DNA from: an uncultured Gammaproteobacteria bacterium
GTDB lineage: Bacteria > Patescibacteriota > Patescibacteriia > VMEV01 > CAZAJQ01
Assembly: GCA_964485795.1 (NCBI GenBank)
Contig: CAZAJQ010000005.1
Location: 4,678-68,677, forward strand
DNA: 64,000 nucleotides
Reading direction: 5' to 3'
The notes beneath the pieces are model-generated. The model was not told where the DNA came from and searched no databases. It saw only the letters and a program-made list of their open reading frames with translations. Positions 4,080 through 10,353 of the stretch are shown here, piece after piece. Made by a program: the position numbers and the translations under genes. The stretch's first letter is position 1, and every line of letters starts with the position of its first letter.

Positions 4080-5402
4080 CTAGTTTGCCGGTGCGGGAAT
4101 CAATCCCCCGCGCTCGGGCGCCACACCTTTTTCAAAAAAGCCGGTGCAAAGCTGAAAGCCGCTTGCGCGGTCGATGCCTAACAAAGTAATCTTGTTTTTA
4201 TCCGCGCTAAACTTGATCTTTGCGAGATTATTCGTGGGCGACTCGATATCCCCGGGAAATAAGGCCACATGTGTGGCTTGGTAACTTGGAAATCCGCCCC
4301 TGAAAACGACAATGCCATTTTCAGGATTGGTTTCGGGAAGCAAAGTCAGCCGCACTTCTTCGGTATCGATGGCGCTTTCCAAAATAGCCTCCTCAAAACC
4401 GCAAGAAAACCCACCGTACGAAATTTTTTTTGATTCAACCTTTCTCGGCTCGACGGCGGGAGCATTAACCGGCTTGGTGTCCTTTTTCAGACCGGTTACC
4501 ACATCGTCTTCATTGTTGTCTTCCGGTTCATCATCATTGTCGGCGGACTCGACAAAAGCTTCATGAAACAGGGCATCCGAATTTTTTTGCGATACGGCCG
4601 CATCGATCTCAATCATAAGCTTTATTTCAAAGCTTTCCTGAGGATTCAAAATATCGACACCGCAAATCGGAAGGCCAAAAAAAACCGTCGAACAATAACC
4701 CAATGTCGTAGAGACGGATTTCACCCCGGCTCCCAACGGGAGATAATCCGTGATGATCACGTCGCTTGCCACTCCGAGTCCGAGATTGGTCACTTTTATG
4801 GTATACATGAGCGTATCTCCGAGCTGTACCGTATCTTTGTCGGCCGTCATCTCCAGCGAGAGATCGGCGATTTTCGAAGGAGGAGGAATTGGCAAGGGTT
4901 GCTTTTTCTGCACCGGCACATTCGCTTGTTTAGTGTCGTCTTTTTGCAAACCCGTGATGAGGTCGGCTCGATTGTTCTCTTTGGGATCCTTGTCATTGCC
5001 GCTTGAGGCGACACGCGCGGTATTCACCAGGGTTGTCGCAGCTTCTTCCACCGTAACCGTCAGCAGGACGGAAACGCTTTGATCGGGTGATAAGCTCTCA
5101 AAATCGCATATCGGAACCCCCACGATGGTGATGCATTCTCCCCCGGCGGCGGAAAGGGACTTTACGGTCACGCCAAACGGGAGATTATCCGTCACCGTTA
5201 CATTCTTTGCGGTTTCGGGACCTCTATTCGTAACCGTCATCGTATATGTCAGGGTATCCCCGGCTTTCACACGGTCTTTATCGGCCGTCTTTTTGATCTC
5301 CAAATCCGCGACACCGGCATTATCGGGAGTTTTTTTATAGAGAAAAAAAATTCCGGTCGCAAGAATAGCGATGGAAATTCCTAAATAGATGAATTTTTTC
5401 AT
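4080..5402 (-). CDS. Secreted DUF11 (conserved repeat domain) protein with two DUF11 repeats
   Basis: Signal-like N-terminus MKKFIYLGISIAILATGIFFLY. Two repeats of the TLTYTMTVTNRGPETAKNVTVTDNLP / TLMYTIKVTNLGLGVASDVIITDYLP type with a conserved Cys pair (DUF11 hallmark). The ORF track extends the start to 5450; I trimmed it to the Met preceding the signal peptide. Confidence 0.7.
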   Translation of the reverse strand: MKKFIYLGISIAILATGIFFLYKKTPDNAGVADLEIKKTADKDRVKAGDTLTYTMTVTNRGPETAKNVTVTDNLPFGVTVKSLSAAGGECITIVGVPICDFESLSPDQSVSVLLTVTVEEAATTLVNTARVASSGNDKDPKENNRADLITGLQKDDTKQANVPVQKKQPLPIPPPSKIADLSLEMTADKDTVQLGDTLMYTIKVTNLGLGVASDVIITDYLPLGAGVKSVSTTLGYCSTVFFGLPICGVDILNPQESFEIKLMIEIDAAVSQKNSDALFHEAFVESADNDDEPEDNNEDDVVTGLKKDTKPVNAPAVEPRKVESKKISYGGFSCGFEEAILESAIDTEEVRLTLLPETNPENGIVVFRGGFPSYQATHVALFPGDIESPTNNLAKIKFSADKNKITLLGIDRASGFQLCTGFFEKGVAPERGGLIPAPAN

Positions 5403-5634: not shown

Positions 5635-7386
5635 TCACCTGCCATGCAACCATTTCTCAAAATCTTTCGCGTTTTGGGTATTGATAATATCTTTTTTCTC
5701 CGCCCAACCGCGTCGAGCCTGCCCCACTCCCATCTCCAGCTGATCCATCTGCGCTACGGCATGACTGTCGGAACAAAGAATCATTGAGACGCCGATTTCC
5801 TTTGCCATTCGTATCAGCGTGTCATGGAGATCAAGTCGTTCTGGTGATGCGTTGATCTCGATCGCCTTGTTTTTCATTTTCGCAAAAGTGAAGACTTGTT
5901 TCCAATCGCACTCGATGGGTTCGCGCGAAAAAATTTTTCGCGCCGTCGGATGTCCAAGTATACGGACATGAGGATTTCTCAATGCCACGATCAGTCGCTT
6001 CGTATTTGCTCTACCGGTCATGCGAAAACTCGAATGCACCGCGGCGACGATACCGTCAAATCGAGCCATTTTTTCATCCGACACTTTCAATTTCCCATCT
6101 TTTTCGATATCCACTTCGCCACCGGCAAAAACTTGTATCTTTTCATTGGAGCATGATTTCACCGCATGAAGATACGAGGTGATTCGACTTTCTTTCACCG
6201 CATCGGCAATCGCCGGACCGAGGATATGATCGGTGATCATGATATATTCATACCCGAGCAAAATCGCTTTTCTGGTCATTTCTTCCGGAGTATTCATGCC
6301 GTCCGAAAAAGTGGTATGAAGCTGACAATCTCCTTTCACGTCTTTCAATGTCAAAAGCGCTGGAAGCACTCCTTGCAAACTCGCTTCGATCTCACCGGTA
6401 TCCGTACGCAGCTCGGGGTCCATCCATCGCATGCCCAAAGCCTCGTAAACGGATTTTTCATCACTCCCCGCGATGCGTTTTTTCCCTTTCCAAAGGCCGT
6501 ATTCATTGAGCTTCATGCCTTTTTTATGTGCGATAGTACGGAGATGGACATTGTGTCGCTTATCTCCCGTGAAATACAACAACGCCGAACCGTACTGCTC
6601 GTCCGGAATCACGAGCATGTCGGCATCAATGCCGATTTTCAAACGCACCGAAGCGCGGGTGGGACCAAAAGACATCACTTCTTTCACTTCCGGCAAATGG
6701 GTAAAAACGTTCAAAAAAGATTCCTGATCTTTTGACGAAGCGATCAAATCCATATCGCCGACCGTTTCCTGAAATCTCCGGAGCGACCCGGCCATATCGA
6801 TCCTTTTGACCCCTGCAATCGCACGTAACCTTGCGATAATTCTTCGCGCCAATGGCATGACCTCTCCCAGAAGCATACGTCCCTTCGAAGCCAAGTAAAG
6901 CTCTATCGCATGACGAATCTTGGCTTCCGACCTGTTTCCGAAGTGTCTCAAGGTCGCGATTTTGTGTCGTTGCACGACCTTTTGAAGGTCGGAAAGATTT
7001 CTGACATGAAGCTCATCATAGAGCTTTCGAACGGTTTTTGGACCGATGCCTTCGATGGCGAGAAGTTCTTCGAGCTTTACCGGACACTTTTTTTTCAACG
7101 CTTCATCGAGGGAAATCTTTCCGGTTTCGATATACTCGGCAATCTTGTCCGCAATGCCGCTCCCGATGGTCGGCAAATCCGCGAGAGCCTTTTTTCCGCC
7201 TTCATGGTAAAGCTTGGCCATGTCTTCCGCCGTATTTTCAAGATATTGCGCCACCCGACGATACGCACGAGGTTTGAAAGCGATGTCGTCGAATTCGAGA
7301 TAATCGGCGATCCCTGAAAAAATCTTTGCAAGTTCAAAATTTTTCATGTTACGCGCATACTCTGAAAAGAGATATTCTCCCGCCAT
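5635..7386 (-). CDS. polX: DNA polymerase X family protein (Pol-beta-like nucleotidyltransferase plus C-terminal PHP phosphoesterase domain)
   Basis: 583 aa. HhH motifs (IEGIGPKTVRKLY), the Pol-beta palm GSLRRFQETVGDMDL, and a PHP domain with H/D metal ligands (LQLHTTFSDG ... ITDH ... HPT...). Confidence 0.85.
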   Translation of the reverse strand: MAGEYLFSEYARNMKNFELAKIFSGIADYLEFDDIAFKPRAYRRVAQYLENTAEDMAKLYHEGGKKALADLPTIGSGIADKIAEYIETGKISLDEALKKKCPVKLEELLAIEGIGPKTVRKLYDELHVRNLSDLQKVVQRHKIATLRHFGNRSEAKIRHAIELYLASKGRMLLGEVMPLARRIIARLRAIAGVKRIDMAGSLRRFQETVGDMDLIASSKDQESFLNVFTHLPEVKEVMSFGPTRASVRLKIGIDADMLVIPDEQYGSALLYFTGDKRHNVHLRTIAHKKGMKLNEYGLWKGKKRIAGSDEKSVYEALGMRWMDPELRTDTGEIEASLQGVLPALLTLKDVKGDCQLHTTFSDGMNTPEEMTRKAILLGYEYIMITDHILGPAIADAVKESRITSYLHAVKSCSNEKIQVFAGGEVDIEKDGKLKVSDEKMARFDGIVAAVHSSFRMTGRANTKRLIVALRNPHVRILGHPTARKIFSREPIECDWKQVFTFAKMKNKAIEINASPERLDLHDTLIRMAKEIGVSMILCSDSHAVAQMDQLEMGVGQARRGWAEKKDIINTQNAKDFEKWLHGR

Positions 7387-7486
7387 TCCTTATTTTATTC
7401 TATCTCTTTCCGGTGAACGTATCTACCCCCACGCTTCAAAGGAAGATGGCTTTTGAAAAACTCATGGAGTTTTCAACATCATTCTC

Positions 7487-7656
7487 TTGACGCGATCATC
7501 TGTCGTGTTTATAGTGAATGAACATTTATGTTAAAAAATTTCCAGCAGTCATTTTGGTTTATTCTTATGCACCTGCCTCAAGCTGGAATCGGTTTGCGCT
7601 AAATCATAGCATCAAAGTATCAAAAACCGTCCTTCCAGCAAAGGGCGGTTTTTTGT
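7487..7656 (+). ncRNA. Candidate small RNA or cis-regulatory leader: sigma70-like promoter followed about 135 nt later by an intrinsic terminator
   Basis: TTGACG(7487-7492)-N17-TATAGT(7510-7515). Hairpin aaaaccgtcc..ggcggtttttt at 7623-7655 followed by a T-run. The hypothetical gene 7805..8872 lies downstream on the same strand. Confidence 0.3.
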
Positions 7657-7804
7657 GTCATGGGGGGTATACACGCAACGTGAAAGAAAGCCGATGCCTC
7701 GCACTCAAACGTTTCAAAAAAGATTGATCCATGGGAGCCGGACATGAGCTTTCAAGAGTCAGAAAGCCGTTCTTTTCATCATTCAATCACAGGAGGTTTA
7801 TCAC

Positions 7805-8872
7805 ATGAATCTATCGCTTCACATGAATGGGACAGCCGTCGTCACTGCTCCCCTCGGTGATATCGTAGTACACGATATCAAATCGTCACTCGGTCATTTT
7901 TGTACGTTGCCAAATTTCGTGACCCGGTATCCCGAAGTGGTCATCAAGGCGCTCGAAAAAATTTACCTGGAATACAACGGCGCTTTTTCCCCGCTTGTGG
8001 AAAGGAATCGCGAATGGGAAAACGATTACCGATACTGCATATACGGCGGAAAATTCGAAAATGTCGCGGTTCAGATCGATATGGTCGGTCTGACCGACGC
8101 CATGCTCGAAACGCTCTCCCGCTTATCCATGGAAGAAGTTATTTCACTGCTCAAAAATTCGATCTTTGAAATCGAAAACTCTCTGGCAATGTACCAGCTT
8201 CTCGAAAAGCAATTTCGAAGAGATGTAGAAAAGTCTTTTTTCAGCCTTCGATTTCGCACAGTTCTCAATCACCTGAGACAAACACATCGGATGCCCATCG
8301 CATTGCTGGCCGTCACACGATCAAAATACGAAGGAATGTTGACTTCGGAGTTTGGCAAAAAGCCCGATGAGGAGATCACCGATGCCGAAGTCTTTGAACT
8401 TTCCGGGTTTGACGCCTTTTTCTCTCCGGAACGATTCGCTCGATACATCCGTGAAAACGGAAATCGATGCGAATACTTGCTCTATGCGAGAACGTCGGAT
8501 CCCATAAACAAGCTCAAAGATTCCACCCGAAAAAACGAGTACTCGTTGCTCGAAGACGCAACGCTCCGCGAAATCATAAAACGGCATGCGATCACCTGCA
8601 ACATTGATGCACCGGACATGGATTACCGGAAAAAAATCAATGATACCAAAGAATATCTTCATCCCATGAATATGGCTTATGAAATCAAAGGCATGAAAGA
8701 TATCATGTCCGAACATTTTCTCAATGTTCTCGAAAAACGCAGAAACAACCGAGGGAGAATCGATCCCGATGAAAATCTTTTCGGAAATTTCTATCCGGAA
8801 GACTTGAAAAAGTTTCTGCTGGCGCGGGGAATCAACCAAAATGCCATCGATGCGGGCAAAGTCACTCTCTGA
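7805..8872 (+). CDS. Hypothetical protein (355 aa), no recognisable family
   Basis: Long ORF with a good SD (caggaggtttatcacATG). Codon usage matches neighbouring genes. The antisense ORF 8321..8911 is judged spurious. Confidence 0.6.
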   Translation: MNLSLHMNGTAVVTAPLGDIVVHDIKSSLGHFCTLPNFVTRYPEVVIKALEKIYLEYNGAFSPLVERNREWENDYRYCIYGGKFENVAVQIDMVGLTDAMLETLSRLSMEEVISLLKNSIFEIENSLAMYQLLEKQFRRDVEKSFFSLRFRTVLNHLRQTHRMPIALLAVTRSKYEGMLTSEFGKKPDEEITDAEVFELSGFDAFFSPERFARYIRENGNRCEYLLYARTSDPINKLKDSTRKNEYSLLEDATLREIIKRHAITCNIDAPDMDYRKKINDTKEYLHPMNMAYEIKGMKDIMSEHFLNVLEKRRNNRGRIDPDENLFGNFYPEDLKKFLLARGINQNAIDAGKVTL

Positions 8873-9149
8873 TGCAAACCCGCCAAAGGGACCTACGGAT
8901 GCTATGGACATGTTTCCGGAACGATTGCGGATAAAAATTTTCGTAGCGATCTAAAAAAAGAAATCCATCGACGCGGACACTATGTCGTCCAGCCCGAAAT
9001 TCCCGCATCCGTCATTTCCAATGAAACGACCGGAGAAACATACACCTTCATTGATCGAATTTTCTTCGGTATCATCGAAGGGAATCCTCTCTTCCTCGGC
9101 GGTATGAGAAATCTCATGCCGCAAGAGAGCATTGAAAATAAAAAAGGAA

Positions 9150-9181
9150 GGATACACGGCAACTCAAAAGCCGTGTATGCC
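9150..9181 (+). other. Imperfect hairpin in the intergenic region (ggatacacggc-N9-gccgtgtatgcc)
   Basis: About 10-bp inverted repeat seen directly in the sequence. Confidence 0.3.
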
Positions 9182-9233
9182 GAAATCGTGTGCTGAATCG
9201 TTTTATCATGAGTTCTTTCTTTCTATCGGGCCA

Positions 9234-9264
9234 GCGTTTATACTCTATATGCTAGTATAAACGC
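9234..9264 (+). promoter_or_regulatory. Perfect 10-bp inverted repeat abutting the start codon of the M20 peptidase gene
   Basis: gcgtttatac-tctatatgcta-gtataaacgc, immediately followed by the ATG at 9265. Candidate operator or translation-masking hairpin. Confidence 0.4.
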
Positions 9265-10353
9265 ATGGCCTCTTTTTTTATGAATACCGACATACTTTCG
9301 CTTTCGAAACAATTCATATCCATCCGATCCACGGCCGCAAATCCCAAAGAACGCGAACAAATATTGACACTGGCTTTATCGCATCTTACCGGATATACCG
9401 CTGAAACGTTTGAACGCAACGGCGTCAAAAGCGCTTTGATTTATAATTTTACCAAAAGGCCGAAAAAATTCAGATTGCTTCTCAACGGTCATCTGGACGT
9501 GATCCCGGCGAAAGAACATCAATTTACTCCAAAAATCGAAAACGACAGGCTTTATGGAGCCGGCTCCATGGACATGAAGGCCAATGCCGCATGCTTGATC
9601 GAAGCTTTTGCCATGACTGCGCATCAAGTTTCTTACCCACTTGCGCTTCAGCTCGTCACCGATGAAGAAATTGGCGGGTTTGACGGAACCAAATATCAGG
9701 TGGAGCAAGGCGTTTCCGCGGACTTTGTGATCGCCGGAGAACCGACGAATTTTGACATCGTGCACATGGCCAAGGGTATTTTACAGCTCAAAATTTCCGC
9801 AGCCGGAAAAACGGCTCATGGAGCTTACCCGTGGAGAGGAGAAAATGCGGTTTGGAAAATGAAAAAAGTTTTGGACATATTGCAAAAAAAATTTCCCATT
9901 CCAAAAAAAGAAGTCTGGGAAACGACTTTAAACTTGAGCAGCATCGAGTCGTCAAACAGAACGTTCAATAAAATCCCGGACGACTGCACGGTTTGGCTTG
10001 ACGTACGATTTGTACCCGAAGACGCAAAACATATTCTCAAAGATATCAAATCGTTGCTTCCAGAGGGATTCAGCGTTTTCGTGAACACCGATGAAGCGGC
10101 GCTCATGACCCCAAAAGACACCCCTGATATCCAGACTCTCAAAAAAATCACCGAGCGAATATTCGGCGACGCCATCAAACTCCGCGGTGCGAACGGCTCT
10201 TCGGACGCGCGCCACTATTCGAAGGTGGGCTGCCGCGGCATCGAATTCGGCCCCATCGGAGGAGGTATAGGCAGCGATGAGGAATGGGTGGACATACCCA
10301 GCCTGGAAACGTATTGTAAAATTCTGAAAGAATTCGTAATGACCATGAAATGA
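9265..10353 (+). CDS. M20 family metallopeptidase (ArgE/DapE-like deacylase)
   Basis: 362 aa. LLNGHLDVIPA, GAGSMDMKANAA, DEEIGG and GEPTN motifs (metal-binding His/Asp/Glu of the M20 family). Confidence 0.8.
   Translation: MASFFMNTDILSLSKQFISIRSTAANPKEREQILTLALSHLTGYTAETFERNGVKSALIYNFTKRPKKFRLLLNGHLDVIPAKEHQFTPKIENDRLYGAGSMDMKANAACLIEAFAMTAHQVSYPLALQLVTDEEIGGFDGTKYQVEQGVSADFVIAGEPTNFDIVHMAKGILQLKISAAGKTAHGAYPWRGENAVWKMKKVLDILQKKFPIPKKEVWETTLNLSSIESSNRTFNKIPDDCTVWLDVRFVPEDAKHILKDIKSLLPEGFSVFVNTDEAALMTPKDTPDIQTLKKITERIFGDAIKLRGANGSSDARHYSKVGCRGIEFGPIGGGIGSDEEWVDIPSLETYCKILKEFVMTMK

Follow-up and report, generated by a model that had tools for sequence, protein, structure and literature searches.

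A probable leader-peptide transcription attenuator upstream of an ATP-grasp-fold ligase/M20 amidohydrolase operon in Patescibacteria

The locus and its two enzymes

Members of the Candidate Phyla Radiation (CPR; Patescibacteria) either have not been cultivated or grow only with difficulty, and their gene regulation is poorly understood. Here we consider a stretch of 64,000 nucleotides from a patescibacterial metagenome bin (contig CAZAJQ010000005.1 of assembly GCA_964485795.1, positions 4,678 to 68,677; “the window,” in whose own coordinates all positions are given) and, within it, the intergenic region between a polX gene and a divergently oriented gene for a ligase. This region holds a compact unit made up of a promoter, a short open reading frame (sORF), and a terminator hairpin. 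We consider it probable that this unit is a leader-peptide (i.e., ribosome-mediated) transcription attenuator of an operon encoding an ATP-grasp-fold ligase and an M20 amidohydrolase. The features of the unit and its operon are as follows.

7487-7515, plus strand: sigma-70-like promoter (-35 element TTGACG at 7487-7492, 17-nt spacer, -10 element TATAGT at 7510-7515)
7528-7602, plus strand: candidate leader ORF of 24 codons plus TAA (MLKNFQQSFWFILMHLPQAGIGLR), absent from the annotation, with a 6-nt 5' untranslated region and no Shine-Dalgarno (SD) sequence
7531-7547, plus strand: segment 1, the putative anti-antiterminator (UUAAAAAAUUUCCAGCA, with its core UUUCCAGC at 7539-7546), which pairs with segment 2
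7552-7566, plus strand: proposed stall zone F9-W10-F11-I12-L13, 8-10 codons upstream of segment 2, placed by composition and position across loci
7582-7595, plus strand: segment 2, the upstream strand of the putative antiterminator (GCUGGAAUCGGUUU), leader codons 19-23
7624-7639, plus strand: segment 3, the terminator 5' arm plus loop (AAACCGUCCUUCCAGC), common to the antiterminator (2:3) and the terminator (3:4)
7626-7657, plus strand: predicted intrinsic terminator, stem ACCGUCCUU/AAGGGCGGU, loop CCAGCA, T6 at 7649-7654, then GTG
7658-7790, plus strand: spacer between terminator and gene, top promoter score 6/12, with a weak second hairpin inside
7791-7796, plus strand: SD sequence AGGAGG of the ligase gene, whose ATG is at 7805
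7805-9196, plus strand: ATP-grasp-fold ligase gene of 463 codons, cut by a TGA at 8870-8872 (assigned by AlphaFold2, Foldseek, and homologues)
9265-10353, plus strand: M20 (ArgE/DapE-like) metallohydrolase gene, a conserved operon partner (assigned by Pfam and NCBIfam)

The original prediction for this DNA, made from its letters alone, described a strong promoter firing toward 7805, a hairpin with a T-run at 7623-7657, and the SD sequence and ATG of a downstream gene, all in a divergent region next to polX; each of these elements is indeed in place. In a consensus scan, TTGACG-N17-TATAGT scores 10/12 and is the top sigma-70-like match within 6500-9500, with transcription predicted to start at ~7522, so that the leader ORF, beginning 6 nt later, would be near-leaderless. 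The hairpin is the stem-loop at 7626-7649 (ACCGTCCTT/CCAGCA/AAGGGCGGT; -12.8 kcal/mol), with A5 before it and T6 after it; an automated terminator scan did not return it, as its stem reaches into the T-run. About 140-150 nt separate the hairpin from the SD sequence and ATG of the ligase gene, and the consensus scan found no promoter-like site in the intervening spacer. The polX gene (5635-7386, minus strand) encodes a PolX-type polymerase by Pfam; given that it lies on the minus strand and the ligase gene on the plus strand, the hairpin cannot terminate a flanking gene. The numbers of promoter-like and terminator-like matches in the region are not above those in shuffles and, taken alone, are not significant. 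The significance of the unit, which is the sole promoter-sORF-terminator unit in the window, lies instead in the recurrence of the whole arrangement in other genomes.

The downstream protein was at first described as a 355-amino-acid product of no recognizable family, and the length needs correcting. The frame of ORF 7805-8872 runs on through the in-frame TGA at 8870-8872 to 9196, giving 463 amino acids, and alignments to homologues of 430-470 amino acids, found in Patescibacteria/CPR metagenome bins, extend over 97-100% of this longer product. The TGA falls in a column that is a nearly invariant Arg (Arg356) in the motif L-R-C-K-P-x-K-G-T-Y-G-C-Y-G-H; the 463-amino-acid protein MBI4117833.1 (Parcubacteria group bacterium) is identical to the read-through product and has Arg356, and the ligase gene of four sister assemblies (L176-L179; loci are numbered with the prefix L) differs only by C versus T at 8870, reading CGA rather than TGA. 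Given the conserved Arg column and the CGA of the sisters, the TGA is a nonsense change specific to this strain (a true variant) or to this assembly (an error), and a stop at this point would delete the conserved KPxKGxYGCYGH part of the ligase. An alternative genetic code and selenocysteine were considered for this codon and rejected on the same two grounds.

As to family, the earlier statement holds at the level of sequence: neither the 463-amino-acid protein nor 40 members of its family match Pfam or NCBIfam, and there is no sequence match in the PDB. At the level of structure it does not. Based on the AlphaFold2 model (pLDDT 92, pTM 0.92) and on Foldseek, in which all top matches are ATP-grasp ligases (probability 0.92-1.0, and 1.0 for the first two), we are confident that the modeled protein has an ATP-grasp fold nearest that of glutathione synthetase. 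These matches comprise human glutathione synthetase, a putative glutathionylspermidine synthase, Cp1B, D-Ala-D-Ala ligases (Ddl), and DcsG, with TM-scores that are low (0.35-0.40). The best of them are eukaryotic-type glutathione synthetase and circularly permuted ATP-grasp ligases (8fbz, 3n6x, and 9cjn, the last being Cp1B), from which the window ligase differs in having no curated-family sequence match and in an identity of 10-12%. Cp1B is the ligase of the E-64 pathway (PMC12568646). The ligase family is small and has sharp limits (of 1.84 billion representative clusters, 191 belong to it at E<=1e-3), it carries no functional annotation, and its members share 45-55% identity with many invariant residues. 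Conserved among them are the loop K-P-x-K-G-x-Y-G-C-Y-G-H and the Q-P-E/D-R-N motifs, which we take to resemble ATP-grasp nucleotide-binding elements. In about 47 of 54 loci the gene immediately 3' of the ligase is that of the M20 hydrolase, and no conserved neighbors were found beyond this pair.

A short ORF and three competing pairings

In the window, the leader ORF spans segments 1 and 2, and the predicted pairings 1:2, 2:3, and 3:4 give the topology of a trp/phe-type attenuator. The leader RNA 7522-7660 folds with UUUCCAGC (7539-7546) paired to GCUGGAA (7582-7588) and with the terminator formed; this segment 1:2 duplex, part of the minimum free energy (MFE) fold, is worth -12.3 kcal/mol. 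A transcript of 7522-7640, which lacks the terminator 3' arm, refolds so that GCUGGAAUCGGUUU (7582-7595) pairs with AAACCGUCCUUCCAGC (7624-7639), a duplex of -18.9 kcal/mol (z=-4.3 versus shuffles). When a 30-nt ribosome footprint is masked, the computed terminator-stem probability falls from 0.96 in the ribosome-free leader to 0.01 if F11 occupies the A site; a ribosome at the stop codon (7600-7602), where it would cover segment 2, leaves it at 0.98. A longer candidate, a 69-amino-acid ORF at 7518-7727, was rejected: its ATG is 2 nt past the -10 box, it crosses the terminator, and it has no counterpart elsewhere.

Is this arrangement particular to one genome? Our comparison drew on 55 loci encoding the ligase family, with 50 non-redundant loci in an unbiased count of the architecture, 32 curated loci, and 28 non-redundant loci in the promoter test. 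Searched against the 55 loci with blastn and nhmmer, the window leader matched L027 alone, which keeps the window hairpin with the same loop and a compensatory U-A to C-G change in the stem; the leaders of the four other assemblies from the same population are 100% identical and thus without information on covariation. What is conserved across loci is architecture, not sequence. A terminator-like hairpin stands 5' of the homologous gene in 31 of the 50 non-redundant loci, and in 25 of those 31 the stem follows, at a distance of 17-36 nt, the end of an ATG-initiated sORF of at least 15 codons, where dinucleotide shuffles would lead one to expect 4.2 such loci. The distance from stop codon to stem is 22-29 nt in 24 of the 32 curated loci. 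A promoter scoring at least 9/12 lies within 53 nt 5' of the sORF in 23/28 loci, with the -10 box usually 5-13 nt from the ATG and no SD sequence between them, and the same consensus scan found no promoter of that score in any of 24 homologous terminator-to-gene spacers.

The pairings are also matched within each lineage. The 3' end of the sORF (its last ~13 codons) is complementary to the 5' arm of its own terminator in 27 of the 32 curated loci (p<=0.05 versus dinucleotide shuffles; mean z -3.5 over the set). Antiterminator duplexes average -19.0 kcal/mol for cognate partners versus -10.7 for non-cognate ones (permutation p<=1e-4), and for 14 of 28 terminators the top-ranked partner is their own sORF, a specificity that amounts to whole-helix covariation between otherwise unalignable sequences. 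Segment 1:2 pairing behaves likewise (-15.1 kcal/mol cognate versus -11.4 non-cognate; permutation p=1e-4), and in most loci only 1-7 nt separate the 3' boundary of segment 2 from that of the stop codon. In simulated nascent transcripts, the terminator 5' arm is pre-paired with a mean probability of 0.84 when the ribosome is held 8 codons upstream of segment 2 and 0.46 when it is at the stop codon (Wilcoxon p=1.3e-6). In sum, three alternative pairings exist and covary within lineages, the ORF is conserved and consistently placed, and there is no internal promoter. The promoter-sORF-terminator layout and the cognate pairings recur though the sequence diverges.

Several observations suggest indirectly that the sORF may be translated, from a near-leaderless start. 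Its presence and placement are far above chance. Among four closely related pairs of loci, the three indels that fall within sORFs each span 3 nt, 6 of 8 sORF substitutions in the L012/L047 pair are at codon position 3, and the substitutions summed over pairs are 17, 13, and 26 at codon positions 1, 2, and 3. The peptides follow a common plan of a polar N terminus, 12-16 hydrophobic/aromatic residues, and 4-9 codons dictated by segment 2. Phe makes up 10.6% of leader residues versus 4.8% in the background and Trp 2.9% versus 0.9%, whereas Asp, Glu, and Pro are under-represented. Of 28 peptides, 22 contain Trp; it lies 5-15 codons 5' of segment 2, which is where a stalled ribosome would uncover that segment. 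Several leaders carry aromatic runs of the kind familiar from Phe or Tyr attenuators (FYYFVFGFWF, YYYYY, FFFF, YYY, and WW in L006).

Further observations concern the spacer, the ligase, and its leaders in other bins. A second hairpin, GCTTTC/GAAAGC with an 8-nt loop at 7748-7767, followed by CGTTCTTTTC to 7779, is weak and terminator-like (-9.2 kcal/mol) and lies 25-55 nt 5' of the ligase start codon. The region of its downstream arm resembles the 5' arm of the main terminator, and in the MFE fold of the full leader it pairs with the main terminator 3' arm; second hairpins are present too in L006, L019, L020, L027, and L033. In some lineages the ligase domain carries ~500 additional amino acids at its N terminus, and the leader then lies 5' of the fused gene. 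Such fusions, in the Microgenomates-type bins L023, L025, L030, and L041, are proteins of 654-972 amino acids whose ORFs start at ~2330-2580 and end at ~4550-5290; the extensions gave no Pfam match in the two tested (L025 and L041), and aromatic/His-rich leader ORFs such as MKINYSTNHFWFHFYPLNGEVVAVLNS stand upstream of the fused genes. Long forms of 880-1190 amino acids also appeared in the representative-cluster search. Other genomes have two ligase copies, in tandem in L009 (3956-7276), in L006 plus L054 (contig JAZDPW010000024.1), and in L002 plus L008 (one bin); each copy has its own leader, and the leader ORFs differ between copies. In L006 and L008 the leader ORF, MNIRYRTSVWWNSYPV, has tandem Trp codons and runs into the terminator stem, which is a different, pyrBI-like geometry.

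Proposed mechanism, signal, and rival explanations

In total, these observations are consistent with a mechanism in which the translating ribosome decides the fate of the transcript. The RNA would start at ~7522, with the 24-codon ORF beginning almost immediately. A ribosome that reaches the stop codon would sit on segment 2, and after its release segment 1 would re-pair with segment 2; on either outcome the terminator at 7626-7649, with its T6, would form, and most transcripts would end at ~7654-7657. A ribosome that stalls earlier, in the aromatic/hydrophobic codons from F9-W10-F11 onward, would instead cover segment 1 and free segment 2, which could then catch the emerging terminator 5' arm, so that RNA polymerase would continue into the ligase and M20 genes. 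We infer this direction of the switch, in which stalling leads to read-through. Because the conserved feature is a short ORF with substitution patterns of a coding type rather than an aptamer or a sequence, the sensor is most likely the translating ribosome. Every structural mark of attenuation that can be tested in silico is found here: a 5' co-oriented ORF, a predicted terminator, a maskable antiterminator, an anti-antiterminator, and the absence of a downstream promoter.

The single mark that is lacking is that the regulated genes make the sensed amino acid or charge its tRNA, and further points also weigh against our reading. We found no link of the ligase/M20 pair to aromatic amino acids, and the two genes do not form a pathway for making an amino acid. 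Enrichment does not fall on the same residues everywhere: some leaders, such as L027, L036, and L050, are simply hydrophobic (Ile, Leu, Val, Phe) or aromatic-poor. The excess of Phe is in good part compositional, as Phe reaches 7.7-8.0% in the other two frames of these T-rich sORFs. The third-position bias together with the conserved Trp suggests selection on the peptide itself, for which a plain starvation sensor has no need. When folding is modeled at equilibrium with a ribosome mask, the window and L027 leaders switch cleanly, yet no more than 10 of the 28 leaders switch at all; the kinetic model of the nascent transcript is more informative and supportive, but crude. In several loci the sORF extends 4-6 codons past segment 2, and hence a terminating ribosome would not cover segment 2. 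Finally, we infer from sequence the start site, the termination site, and that ribosomes translate an sORF preceded by just 6 nt and lacking an SD sequence.

If the ribosome is the sensor, what signal would stall it? Our best guess, offered tentatively and with well short of even confidence, is a shortage of charged aromatic tRNAs (Trp, Phe, and Tyr); the alternatives are nascent-peptide or ligand-dependent arrest and general translation stress. In one specific version, which we regard as unlikely, the leader is no starvation sensor but a conserved, Trp-containing hydrophobic arrest peptide that senses a small molecule in the ribosome, perhaps a substrate or product of the ligase/M20 pair, and thereby keeps the ribosome either on segment 2 or away from it. 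If true, this would be a CPR-wide family of metabolite sensors pointing to the chemistry of a lineage-defining two-enzyme module. That classical leader-peptide attenuation occurs in the same phyla is indicated by L007, where an Ile-rich leader precedes a citramalate/isopropylmalate-synthase-like gene.

A related observation arose when we scanned metagenomes with the hairpin pattern CCGTCCNTCCAGCNNNGGGCGG. Among the matches listed, nearly all were chance occurrences inside GC-rich coding regions, and one was useful: L138, an unrelated Ile-leader attenuator, whose terminator is nearly identical to that of the window, probably by chance. In L138 (~2130-2360) and L007 (1863-3584), the Ile-rich leader ORFs, MPRNVLAAHILTSIIIIGLTGA and MQKIVLKIIEIISIVIIGRQFFVRVCI, are each followed by a terminator, and both stand 5' of a citramalate/isopropylmalate-synthase-like gene. 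The downstream gene of L007 has the Pfam domains HMGL-like and LeuA_dimer, and that of L138 was judged by eye. Both have the look of classical ilv/leu-type attenuators, and one belongs to a Moraniibacteriota bin.

The strongest rival is that the sORF encodes a functional hydrophobic micro-protein, whether one that resides in the membrane or one on which the ligase and M20 enzyme act as their partner, carrier, or precursor, with the hairpin as a leaky terminator that keeps the peptide:enzyme ratio high. Parallels exist in the LysW/LysX/LysK system and in the systems that pair a precursor of a ribosomally synthesized and post-translationally modified peptide with an ATP-grasp enzyme. The peptides do resemble single hydrophobic helices with a near-universal Trp and few Asp, Glu, or Pro residues, substitutions between close pairs favor codon position 3, the sORF is strictly linked to the ligase and amidohydrolase genes, and the M20 protein weakly matches [LysW]-lysine hydrolase models. 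However, pairing with the cognate terminator dictates the C-terminal 4-9 codons, which is hard to square with a conserved modification or attachment site, and a peptide of 15-45 residues that varies widely beside a ligase that is 45-55% identical suggests a fixed small-molecule substrate. The lineage-matched 1:2, 2:3, and 3:4 pairings would be left without a role, and a 24-residue peptide would be released before it exits the ribosomal tunnel. We therefore judge a micro-protein to be improbable as the explanation of the unit, though it is compatible with attenuation.

The remaining rivals do away with the leader peptide as sensor, and we give them progressively less credence. The original prediction had proposed either a transcription-attenuating leader, of riboswitch or T-box type, or an independent small RNA (sRNA). 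Attenuation in its general sense is borne out by the terminator with its mutually exclusive antiterminator, by the absence of promoters from this spacer and the 24 others, and by a layout conserved upstream of the homologous gene. A switch that depends on a ligand, a tRNA, or an RNA-binding protein, with the ORF incidental, would share this terminator/antiterminator architecture, which is common to all these classes, and the window leader does fold better than shuffles (z -2.6 to -2.7). We nevertheless hold such a switch to be very unlikely. No Rfam family reaches its gathering score in the leader or in 15 homologous leaders, the only families found in the whole window at that score being tRNAs, and the Rfam scan suggested earlier, run permissively over 7380-7830, gave a best hit of E=0.36, with weak matches to Phe_leader, RNAI, and RefA9 (E 0.36-0.7) resting on the terminator hairpin alone. 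There is no conserved sequence or aptamer-sized structure, and the part upstream of the switch is only ~55 nt and is filled by the ORF, whose presence, start, and stop positions are far above chance and whose indels are in frame. A separate sRNA gene of ~135 nt, lying beside a ligase gene that has its own promoter, would account for the full promoter-to-terminator unit between two divergent genes. But such a ligase promoter was seen neither in the window nor in any homologous spacer, the unit always adjoins, and is co-oriented with, the same gene family across phyla, and coding and pairing geometry are conserved where sequence is not; this second part of the original prediction, too, we hold to be very unlikely. 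Least credible of all is that the sORF product is a hydrophobic peptide of the type I toxin kind, made from a structured mRNA. The size and hydrophobicity of the sORF product do resemble Ibs, ShoB, and TisB-type toxins, and the A- and T-runs on either side of the hairpin could let it act as a terminator on both strands; yet there is no antisense promoter in 7660-7810, and a unit that is present once in 64 kb, is neither mobile nor multi-copy, and keeps stable synteny with one housekeeping-like operon in very divergent genomes is not what a toxin would predict.

Significance and likeness to known systems

Leader-peptide attenuation, if it is what operates here, would be a concrete regulatory element conserved over many CPR classes, in which textbook attenuation logic runs from a near-leaderless mRNA. 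It would also offer a way into the control of a compact pair of enzymes confined to CPR, since whatever stalls ribosomes on the leader would be the condition in which the ligase and M20 enzyme are needed. A full-text search of the literature turned up no paper that brings leader peptides and attenuation together with CPR, and ribosome-sensing attenuation in CPR appears not to have been described previously. There is a warning for annotation as well: in the four sister assemblies no gene, and thus no leader ORF, is called between polX and the ligase gene, and in the window a single nonsense change splits the ligase gene.

Leader-peptide attenuation may be more general in CPR genomes. Near the ligase loci we saw additional promoter-sORF-terminator units with aromatic/hydrophobic leaders, upstream of a 326-amino-acid protein without a Pfam match (L009, 2409-3545), an Asp/Glu racemase (L011, 2112-3148), and an AlaX-like tRNA-editing protein (L013, 529-1706). 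Separately, many bins that carry this otherwise CPR-restricted gene pair are titled Gammaproteobacteria, Rickettsiales, Methanocellales, or Omnitrophota (L003, L004, L009, L014, L020, L031, and others); such non-CPR titles probably reflect mis-binned or mislabeled Patescibacteria contigs.

How does the proposed attenuator compare with systems already known? The closest likeness is to the leader-peptide attenuators of enterobacteria (trpL, pheL, pheM of pheST, hisL, leuL, and ilvL), with which it shares a promoter-proximal short ORF, the same overlapping 1:2, 2:3, and 3:4 pairings with 3:4 as the intrinsic terminator, and the same placement of the stop codon, such that a terminating ribosome masks segment 2. 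The aromatic-rich peptides of the window type recall PheL, PheM, and TrpL with its WW. In contrast, the CPR-type ORF is near-leaderless and without an SD sequence, its control residues are mixed (Phe, Trp, Tyr, and sometimes only Ile/Leu/Val) rather than a clean run of a single residue, the regulated genes encode an ATP-grasp ligase and an M20 hydrolase rather than a cognate pathway or tRNA synthetase, and the hosts are Patescibacteria. The near-leaderless first ORF also recalls the mycobacterial polycysteine sORFs, which are reported to be leaderless first cistrons whose translation modulates the downstream genes (bioRxiv 10.1101/834739). The mycobacterial ORFs are Cys-rich and precede Cys-related operons, whereas those described here are aromatic/hydrophobic and come with a clear intrinsic terminator/antiterminator pair.

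Two other groups of leaders invite comparison. In the antibiotic- or translation-stress-responsive leaders of, e.g., ermK, bmrB-bmrCD, vmlR, and lmo0919, stalling on a short and often hydrophobic peptide frees an antiterminator and allows read-through into resistance determinants such as ABC-F proteins, methyltransferases, and efflux pumps; the stall-antiterminator logic is alike, but the ligase/M20 pair shows no sign of a resistance function. TnaC, the leader of the tna operon, has 24 residues, as does the Trp-containing leader of the window. In TnaC a critical Trp lies ~12-15 residues from the C terminus, the peptide sequence matters, and the mode of action is to block access of Rho at the stop codon. 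The window unit has an intrinsic terminator instead, termination would be favored by holding a ribosome at the stop codon, and no conserved Asp or Pro positions are seen in the leaders. What is distinctive is the CPR setting, the near-leaderless start, and the uncharacterized, lineage-restricted operon that the leader precedes.

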